Shown here: one piece after another, positions 18,379 to 19,090 of the stretch
Position numbering within the stretch: position 1 is the stretch's first letter
Layout: every line of letters starts with the position of its first letter
From: Escherichia coli
GTDB taxonomy: Bacteria; Pseudomonadota; Gammaproteobacteria; Enterobacterales; Enterobacteriaceae
Length of the DNA stretch: 64,000 nucleotides
NCBI RefSeq assembly: GCF_003334355.1
Contig: NZ_QOWP01000006.1
Direction: 5' to 3' (one strand)
The notes under the pieces: generated by a model
Database searches by the model: none
Told to the model about the DNA's origin: nothing
The model's input: the letters and a program-made list of their open reading frames with translations, nothing else
Translations under genes and position numbers: made by a program

Positions 18379-18441
18379 TGGGCGGTATTCTGAAACGGCG
18401 ATTGTCGTGAGAACAGAATGGTTGCACCAGAATACAGATAT

Positions 18442-18478
18442 AAAAAAACCGACATGACAGTCGGTTTTTTTATTTTTT
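18442..18478. terminator. Bidirectional rho-independent terminator (selU on +; candidate sRNA on -)
   Basis: AAAAAAA-ACCGAC-ATGACA-GTCGGT-TTTTTTTATTTTTT; A-tract before and T-tract after the hairpin. Confidence 0.75.
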
Positions 18479-18530
18479 CCGCCCAAGACTTGGTGGTTCC
18501 GGGCAGAAATGAAACAGTCCTCATCTAGCA
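18442..18530 (-). ncRNA. Candidate antitoxin sRNA (~88 nt); its 5' end is antisense to a 16-nt element that recurs in the toxin leader
   Basis: Minus-strand promoter (-35 TTGAAT, 17-bp spacer, -10 TATAAT) puts the start near 18529-18533; transcript begins with the reverse complement of CAGTCCTCATCTAGCA (18515-18530) and ends at the bidirectional terminator. Confidence 0.4.
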
Positions 18531-18535
18531 AGTGA

Positions 18536-18564
18536 ATTATAAGTCAGGATGCCTACATATTCAA
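18536..18564 (-). promoter_or_regulatory. Predicted sigma-70 promoter of the candidate sRNA
   Basis: Minus-strand -35 TTGAAT (18559-18564), 17-bp spacer, perfect -10 TATAAT (18536-18541). Confidence 0.45.
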
Positions 18565-18680
18565 ACAGCTATGTTGGCGATACAATCCCGACGCTAGTAG
18601 TGATACTGCCTCAAGGGATTACCGCAGTGCGGAAAAGTACTTTTAAGTCCTGGTCAGGATACAGGTGGTGCTGATTCTGG

Positions 18681-18689
18681 TGCTCTAAT
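18681..18689 (+). promoter_or_regulatory. Predicted extended -10 promoter (TGcTCTAAT) for the toxin mRNA
   Basis: TGn + TCTAAT on the plus strand; predicted start near 18696, just 5' of the second 16-nt copy (18701-18716). Confidence 0.3.
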
Positions 18690-18789
18690 TTGGAGAGAGG
18701 CAGTCCTCATCTAGCACATGAAGAAAATCATAGTTACAGGCAACGTAAGGGTAAGCTGTGATTGTCTTTCTCCCTTAAGGGAGCAACGG

Positions 18790-18873
18790 ATGAAAACTTT
18801 TCTCGATAAAGTTCTCATCGTTCTTAAGGCGCTAATCGCGCTGCTGGAACTGATCCGTCAGTTTATTGAATAA
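18790..18873 (+). CDS. Candidate type I toxin: 27-aa hydrophobic peptide MKTFLDKVLIVLKALIALLELIRQFIE (DinQ-like)
   Basis: ATG 18790 with AAGGGAG SD 6 nt upstream; SD lies in a CTCCC/GGGAG hairpin; single predicted TM helix; own terminator downstream; core ALIALLELIR recalled as shared with DinQ. Confidence 0.5.
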   Translation: MKTFLDKVLIVLKALIALLELIRQFIE

Positions 18874-18893
18874 CTGAGGAAACGTAGCTAAGG

Positions 18894-18920
18894 CCGAAGG
18901 TTTACCACCTTCGGTCTTTA
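18894..18920 (+). terminator. Terminator of the small toxin ORF
   Basis: CCGAAGGT-TTACC-ACCTTCGG hairpin followed by TCTTTA. Confidence 0.6.
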
Positions 18921-18944
18921 AAAAAACCGACATGACAGTTGGTT
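18920..18944. repeat. Second copy of the 25-nt selU-terminator motif (one mismatch)
   Basis: AAAAAAACCGACATGACAGTTGGTT versus AAAAAAACCGACATGACAGTCGGTT at 18442-18466. Confidence 0.7.
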
Positions 18945-18976
18945 TCATATTTATTGCCAAAATGCACACTGTTCAT

Positions 18977-19074
18977 GCCGGATGCGGCGTAAACGCCTTA
19001 TCCGGCCTACACAATCTTGCAAAATCAATATATTGCACGCTCTTCGTAGGCCTGATAAGCGTAGCGCATCAGGC
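18977..19074. repeat. BIME: two inverted REP units downstream of ybbP
   Basis: GCCGGATGCGGCGTAAACGCCTTATCCGGCCTAC and GTAGGCCTGATAAGCGTAGCGCATCAGGC. Confidence 0.8.
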
Positions 19075-19090
19075 AATCTAACACCTGTCA

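Follow-up and report, generated by a model that had tools for sequence, protein, structure and literature searches.

The stretch of DNA considered here, called the window, is a 64,000-nucleotide piece of an Escherichia coli genome (contig NZ_QOWP01000006.1), and its point of interest is the 712 bp gap (18379-19090) between the convergent genes selU and ybbP. Very likely the 570 bp inserted in this gap are a type I toxin-antitoxin module that belongs to the DinQ/Dql-AgrB family and is paralogous to the SOS-regulated dinQ-agrAB; the second copy of a repeated 25-nt motif within it would mark no junction. The family features found at the level of sequence are a match to the toxin model, a match to the small RNA (sRNA) model, a divergent layout of the two genes without overlap and complementarity of the sRNA to the toxin 5' untranslated region (UTR). 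From left to right the locus reads as follows.

17284-18378, plus strand: selU/mnmH, tRNA 2-selenouridine synthase, the left flank of the slot (364-aa open reading frame (ORF) and RefSeq annotation of strain 214-4)
18393-18962, no strand: the inserted module, 570 bp, absent from empty sites (alignment with comparison loci L004 and L005)
18440-18473, no strand: repeat copy 1, a bidirectional intrinsic terminator with a perfect 14-bp hairpin flanked by A7 and T7, aligning to the terminator stem of the AgrB model
18528 to 18440, minus strand: AgrB-like antisense sRNA, the putative antitoxin, about 89 nt (Rfam RF02891, 53.6 bits against a gathering threshold of 40, full model 1-84)
18536-18564, minus strand: sigma-70 promoter of the sRNA, TTGAAT-17-TATAAT, the sole promoter-like site in the gap, matching the consensus at 10 of 12 positions
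18581-18586, plus strand: inferred −10 element of the toxin mRNA, TACAAT, aligning with the −10 of K-12 dinQ (TATGAT) and of plasmid dinQ/dqlB (TATAAT)
18692-18714, plus strand: target of the sRNA in the toxin 5' UTR, overlapping direct repeat D2 and predicted to form a duplex with sRNA nt 1-23
18770-18776 and 18777-18783, plus strand: anti-Shine-Dalgarno sequence CTCCCTT and Shine-Dalgarno (SD) sequence AAGGGAG, together a palindromic hairpin (inverted repeat I7)
18790-18873, plus strand: gene for a 27-aa DinQ-family toxin, MKTFLDKVLIVLKALIALLELIRQFIE (NCBIfam NF041472 toxin_DinQ, 40.9 bits, cutoff 30; RefSeq coding sequence dinQ, WP_349808740.1)
18890-18918, plus strand: terminator hairpin of the toxin mRNA (inverted repeat I4), homologous to the K-12 dinQ and plasmid dql terminators, with a short U-tract
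18919-18958, no strand: repeat copy 2, which over 40 nt duplicates the sRNA 3' end (the terminator and 14 nt of sRNA body) in decayed form, with a C-to-T change
18970-19078, no strand: repetitive extragenic palindromic (REP)/bacterial interspersed mosaic (BIME) elements, part of the resident intergenic region outside the insert and also present in empty sites (weak Rfam matches naRNA4 and ES036)
19091-21505, minus strand: ybbP, ABC transporter permease, the right flank of the slot (804-aa ORF and RefSeq annotation)

The toxin candidate is a hydrophobic peptide (grand average of hydropathy 1.23), in line with the small single-helix peptides of about 27-31 aa that are typical of the family, and it passes the DinQ cutoff and not that of the DqlB equivalog model NF041473 (24.5 bits against 35). 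In public databases it goes under the name dinQ on at least 1,000 contigs, and the RefSeq gene model of the module's dinQ differs by genome, being 27 aa, 51 aa (as in L133 659-814) or 25 aa long. Alignment with dinQ would place the +1 of the mRNA near 18593 and a processed 5' end at about 18642. A LexA box in the form CTG-N10-CAG occurs nowhere in 18379-19090, although K-12 has CTGGATAATCATACAG at the homologous place (L001 683-698), where it overlaps the −10; this pattern was the one used, a 20-mer consensus with up to three mismatches having missed even the known K-12 box. The bases flanking TACAAT at the position of the box are here GCGA...CGAC, much as in the plasmid dql genes. Neither the LexA box nor the position between arsR and gor, the pair of traits that set dinQ proper apart, is thus shared by the module, and with the box missing it counts as a DinQ/Dql-family paralogue rather than as the SOS-regulated dinQ itself. 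RefSeq's label 'damage-inducible type I toxin DinQ' therefore probably misnames it.

The AgrB-like sRNA on the other strand is unannotated despite a score above the Rfam AgrB threshold. The −10 of its promoter ends 7 nt ahead of the Rfam-aligned 5' end, and the 89-nt RNA is predicted to fold into a 5' region, a GC-rich stem-loop and a terminator stem-loop (−33.9 kcal/mol, z = −4.9). Further Rfam matches, to STnc370, OrzO-P, RNAI, MicC and others, were dismissed as sub-threshold and due to the terminator hairpin. The −35 of the sRNA promoter (TTGAAT, minus strand, 18559-18564) stands some 17 nt upstream of the inferred toxin −10, and as the two divergent promoters are back to back they may compete for RNA polymerase. 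It was also observed that the sRNA loop ACCACCAA (18480-18500) is complementary to a family-invariant block of the UTR, CAGGTGGTGC (18660-18672), which could reflect a kissing contact, or else an sRNA that once arose by inverted duplication of the UTR.

The antisense interaction itself appears in the DNA as a second direct repeat, D2, absent from the first-pass annotation of this stretch: 18515-18536, the sRNA 5' end in plus-strand reading, and 18701-18722, in the toxin 5' UTR, are identical at 20 of 22 positions (91%). The pairing region is the 5' end of the sRNA, from 18528 leftwards, and nt 1-23 of the sRNA can pair with 18692-18714 over 23 positions, as 18 contiguous pairs (14 of them Watson-Crick), one mismatch and four more pairs; the interaction as a whole is predicted at −42.6 kcal/mol. 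Duplex energies refer to the sRNA 5' 34 nt against the target region, since whole-RNA prediction gave inflated and uninformative values. Among five family loci the pairing sequence varies from locus to locus, yet the sRNA and UTR copies match within each, and this within-locus matching of co-varying sequences is the best in-silico support for a functional interaction. Cross-pairing with the canonical dinQ-agrAB system looks weak in the predictions, at just −27.5 kcal/mol for AgrB on the module target and −37.6 kcal/mol for the module sRNA on dinQ, with AgrB on dinQ at −58.2 kcal/mol.

DinQ and AgrB have been characterised experimentally (Weel-Sneve 2013, PMC3567139; Kristiansen 2016, PMC5066626), the toxicity of DinQ and its neutralisation by the sRNA have been demonstrated (PMC3567139), and mutually exclusive pairings within the 5' UTR (elements 1:2, 2:3 and 3:4), by which the SD is opened or closed, have been established by experiment for dinQ (PMC5066626). 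By analogy we infer structural switching, transcript ends, toxicity and repression for the module, which would work as follows. The sigma-70 promoter would constitutively drive an AgrB-like sRNA of about 89 nt leftwards, ending at the copy 1 hairpin, and the divergent promoter, which has no LexA box, would drive an mRNA of about 330 nt rightwards, whose product would be the hydrophobic peptide of 27 aa, targeting the membrane. With its single-stranded 5' end the sRNA would then pair with 18692-18714 in the mRNA 5' UTR, and as for dinQ this pairing would release the anti-SD to sequester the ribosome-binding site and leave an sRNA-mRNA duplex open to RNase III, so that toxin is not produced. Minimum free energy folds are in keeping with such a scheme: in the predicted fold of the long mRNA form (from the inferred 5' end) the extreme 5' end occludes the sRNA target and the anti-SD pairs with the SD, and in that of the short form (from the inferred processed end) the sRNA target pairs with the anti-SD segment.

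The likeness to known systems extends over the whole unit. From the sRNA terminator through the toxin terminator it aligns with the K-12 agrA-dinQ unit of the arsR-gor region and with plasmid dinQ/dqlB loci, each of which has a divergent AgrB-like sRNA (Rfam 57-58 bits). With K-12 dinQ-agrA/agrB it shares a 27-aa hydrophobic peptide with the common core ...IVL.ALIALLELIR...., a divergent sRNA of about 85 nt that uses its 5' end to pair with the toxin 5' UTR ahead of the SD, a hairpin that sequesters the SD, homologous terminators and some 67-70% nucleotide identity across the unit. In contrast to the K-12 locus the module lies between selU and ybbP, has one sRNA gene and not two, uses a different pairing sequence, starts its toxin with ATG and not GTG, has three more N-terminal and three fewer C-terminal residues, and has, behind its toxin gene, an additional and decayed copy of the sRNA 3' end. 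The wider dql family is found on chromosomes and plasmids of Enterobacteriaceae, some strains carrying dql plus dinQ (PMC5066626), and DqlB-agrB of plasmid pOXA-48 is a validated addiction module, toxic and examined with compensatory base-pair mutants (PMC12365149). With dqlA/dqlB, pOXA-48 DqlB-agrB included, the module has in common the unit architecture, an AgrB-like sRNA in the same divergent position, the lack of a LexA box, and a conserved −10, UTR blocks, SD and terminator; unlike them it is chromosomal, at a fixed site and found on no E. coli plasmid, and nucleotide identity to the plasmid copies is just 68-72%, over the mRNA part only. Among the matches listed the closest relative outside E. 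coli lies on the Enterobacter sp. BIGb0383 chromosome (L110 2100-2600), with 74.6% identity over UTR and coding sequence, the peptide VKTVLDRVLIVLKALVALLELIRQFIR, an sRNA/target pair of its own that co-varies, a different gene context and no second terminator copy. Neither the 27-aa peptide nor the module site between selU and ybbP was found mentioned in the literature searched. The module is a new or at least undescribed member of the DinQ/Dql family, unless it is the 'dqlA' of Kristiansen 2016.

A further comparison is with zorO-orzO and the orphan OrzP (PMC11264685), likewise a strain-variable chromosomal type I toxin-antitoxin system with a divergent sRNA that pairs in trans, and one in which lineages with the sRNA only have arisen after toxin loss. 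It belongs to a different sequence family, the OrzO-P Rfam model giving 24 bits here against a gathering threshold of 60. The sRNA-only lineages have a counterpart in the present module. Across 5,426 complete E. coli genomes, 1,315 (about 24%) have at least 80% of the module, 1,259 of them at 99% identity or more, and in 1,288 genomes its end is contiguous with the REPs and ybbP. E. coli ATCC 8739 is one of the strains with the module. A segment of 131 nt that spans the sRNA target, the SD and the start codon is kept in 1,136 genomes, 1,134 of these being at least 99% identical in it. The remaining carriers, about 179 of the 1,315 (some 14%), are without this region, and the toxin is therefore dispensable. 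In the one such carrier examined, strain 118UI (L006, around 1822), there is a 108-bp deletion corresponding to 18701-18808 of the window, between the imperfect repeats AGTCCTCATC and AGTTCTCATC, which takes out the sRNA target, SD and ATG and leaves the sRNA gene, giving an sRNA-only locus. In 118UI RefSeq still calls a 25-aa 'dinQ', whose start must be a non-canonical codon. Carriers also hold the canonical dinQ locus, at a second and separate genomic place.

The slot between selU and ybbP is a true hotspot with alternative cargoes. In K-12 MG1655 the two genes stand 7,301 bp apart, with rhsD-ybbC-ylbH-ybbD-ylbI-ylbG between them, and K-12-type sequence directly follows selU, on the side of the RhsD island, in 2,908 of the 5,426 genomes (about 54%). 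A junction of the empty type is found in 457 (about 8%), and the remaining states of the slot include an island with a type VI secretion system (T6SS) Hcp effector and a minimal gap of 58 bp. The RhsD and T6SS Hcp-effector/DUF2931 islands share the slot with the module as mutually exclusive cargoes, and differ from it in being multi-kilobase polymorphic-toxin/immunity competition loci, unrelated to a 570-bp RNA-regulated module. Recombination between homologous, conserved flanks is probably what carries the module from one lineage to another. The first-pass annotation had reported the RhsD island absent and selU and ybbP only 712 bp apart, on which the ORFs, RefSeq and the K-12 comparison agree, and it had taken the ~0.5-kb content for alternative cargo at a variable hotspot, which the K-12-type, module, empty and T6SS states now bear out; the DinQ-like toxin, the AgrB-like sRNA and the role of copy 1 as the terminator of that sRNA had escaped it. 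The counter-case it had named, that RhsD-negative strains might all share one arrangement and leave no empty sites, is not realised given the 457 empty-type genomes.

Turning to the repeat, the pattern AAAAAAACCGACATGACAGTYGGTT has exactly two matches in the window, at 18442-18466 and 18920-18944, and matched none of 100 shuffles. The similarity runs on beyond 25 nt, to 40 nt at 83% identity (18441-18480 and 18919-18958, spacing 478 bp). Copy 1 scored as terminator-like on both strands and folds well on each (−16.4 kcal/mol, z = −7.3, on the plus strand; −17.5 kcal/mol, z = −6.1, on the minus strand). Given the Rfam AgrB match, which ends there, and the sole promoter, which stands in front of that RNA, copy 1 reads first of all as the terminator of the AgrB-like sRNA on the minus strand, and it probably also ends selU transcription on the plus strand. 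Copy 2 starts exactly at the end of the tail of the toxin terminator and stops 4 nt short of the right edge of the insert. Its hairpin is weak on the plus strand (−8.5 kcal/mol, z = −2.4) and no better than shuffles on the minus strand (−6.3 kcal/mol, z = −0.9), where the stem has an A.C mismatch; folded jointly, the toxin terminator and copy 2 give −26.5 kcal/mol. The same C-to-T change is present in every carrier examined. In the 5,426 genomes a 47-nt query finds the 25-nt motif in 1,331, with no genome having more than two copies and no plasmid having any. Among the matches listed (L007-L126), the bare stem AAAAACCGAC-N4-8-GTCGGTTTTT recurs as a bidirectional terminator in many unrelated phyla and is too generic, and only the loop-specific 25-mer is diagnostic of the module; the informative loci that the stem pattern returned among the matches listed are E. 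albertii dinQ-agrB (L037), Enterobacter sp. BIGb0383 (L110) and Pluralibacter (L120).

Whether the two copies could be a target-site duplication, or an attachment-site pair left by a mobile segment that entered a pre-existing selU terminator, is decided largely by the empty sites. The thought comes readily in a hotspot, with direct repeats close to either end of the insert. In empty slots, such as those of FDAARGOS_1257 (140-bp gap) and MSB1_4I (240-bp gap), the selU stop is followed by GGGGGATTCTG, which at the breakpoint joins TGCACGCTGTTCATGCCGGATG... (REP) and then ybbP, and neither L004 nor L005 has a copy of the motif. Copy 1 lies 48 nt inside the one breakpoint (18393) and the 40-nt copy 2 lies 4 nt inside the other (18962), and with both copies inside the insert and none in the empty sites the repeat is not a target-site duplication. 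Moreover every family member has copy 1 as an integral, homologous piece of its AgrB-type sRNA, and the 570 bp show neither terminal inverted repeats nor a flanking duplication nor a recombinase. A genome with one motif copy and no module was not found among the 5,426, every motif genome examined having the module. In 13 genomes there is apparently a single motif place, and the one that was opened, PapRG-06-5, has the full module with a single-nucleotide polymorphism in the loop; an artificial single-copy junction query gave 1,320 genomes against 1,315 and no excess class, although BLAST joins pieces less than 500 bp apart and such a query does not separate the classes. We regard an insertion junction as very improbable indeed. 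The first-pass annotation was thus right on the two direct copies, on copy 1 as an intact bidirectional hairpin and on the altered copy 2, and the generic terminator elsewhere in the genome, which it had allowed for, is not what the motif turns out to be, every motif genome examined being a module carrier. Its insertion junction does not survive the motif-free empty sites, the strains with a single repeat and no module that it had proposed to look for were not found in the set, and the recombination scar it had offered as an alternative stands solely as a duplication internal to the module, and not as a scar of insertion. As to that duplication, the toxin terminator of the homologues closes with CTTTAATAAAACC, which has microhomology to TAAAAAAACC at the start of the sRNA terminator, and no copy 2 is present in the units of K-12, plasmids or Enterobacter. 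Most likely the 478-bp unit once underwent a partial tandem duplication or a template switch, mediated by microhomology, of which copy 2 is the truncated and decayed remainder, and the event most likely predates the spread of the module in E. coli; the junction of a full array would read CTTTAAAAAAACCGAC. That copy 2 has a function, be it to stabilise or terminate the toxin mRNA as an additional 3' stem-loop or to block read-through from the convergent ybbA-ybbP operon, seems unlikely. Its uniform C-to-T change and its plus-strand hairpin, directly after a toxin terminator with a short U-tract, would suit such a role, but the closely related units of K-12, plasmids and Enterobacter manage without it, its minus-strand stem is mismatched and folds no better than shuffles, and its uniformity is equally explained by the identity of 99% or more across the whole module.

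What weighs against a type I module with copy 2 as an internal duplicate can be put together here. Family membership, anatomy, complementarity, boundaries and population counts were read off directly, and the toxin-antitoxin function is predicted from them. The toxin promoter has a poor −35 and was missed by a consensus promoter scan; the cognate duplex at −42.6 kcal/mol is no better than that of AgrA on dinQ at −42.7 kcal/mol, a pair reported as non-repressing (PMC5066626), although the cognate pairing is more contiguous; in the ~179 carriers the target, SD and start codon are gone; and the evidence for how copy 2 arose is one-sided, with a full tandem array seen in none of the genomes. The lost starts, the weak −35 and the unremarkable duplex energy would all be expected as well if the module were a decaying, non-functional remnant, a silent toxin gene with an orphan sRNA, passively carried. 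Yet the ORF, SD, anti-SD, target and sRNA promoter are intact and at least 99% identical in 1,136 genomes, the sRNA and its target are still matched though both differ from every homologue, and the toxin scores above its equivalog cutoff, so that a mere remnant is in our judgement an unlikely account. A further idea keeps the module as a LexA-independent DinQ paralogue and lets its sRNA act also in trans, for instance on the SOS-induced dinQ mRNA by way of the −37.6 kcal/mol duplex predicted above. This would explain why the sRNA is retained in the ~179 genomes without the toxin target and start codon, and were it true, the membrane-depolarisation or persistence response would be rewired in one E. 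coli strain out of four; it is a long shot, less probable than decay. The type I toxin-antitoxin module, paralogous to dinQ-agrAB, stays the preferred reading.

For practical purposes a second toxin gene of the DinQ family is present in about one in four complete E. coli genomes; it is annotated automatically, and its antitoxin sRNA is not. Studies of dinQ/agrB phenotypes, persistence or copy number in strains other than K-12 should consider the paralogue and also its toxin-deleted, sRNA-only variant. The gap between selU and ybbP is documented as a slot that alternates between Rhs, T6SS Hcp-effector and type I toxin-antitoxin cargo. The value of this is mainly one of annotation and bookkeeping, and the understanding of such systems is unchanged; the finding is real and ordinary.

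The calls for the two flanking genes agree with the RefSeq annotation of strain 214-4, which is 100% identical. The gap has no Rhs core gene with tip and immunity genes, there being no ORF above 51 aa in the 712 bp, and the 41-aa and 51-aa ORFs were dropped as genes in their own right, having no independent family support in the profile search. The island that fills the slot in strains Z1323HEC0462 (L130 9061-12607) and GF60 (L131 9061-12607) measures 3.5 kb and encodes a tssD (Hcp)-effector fusion of 2 kb along with two DUF2931 genes; in both strains selU extends 12 nt further, which puts the breakpoint within its last codons. Beside ybbP the REP/BIME array consists of one to three units by strain (18970-19078 in the window; L005 2395-2560; L133 915-1115), independently of the module.

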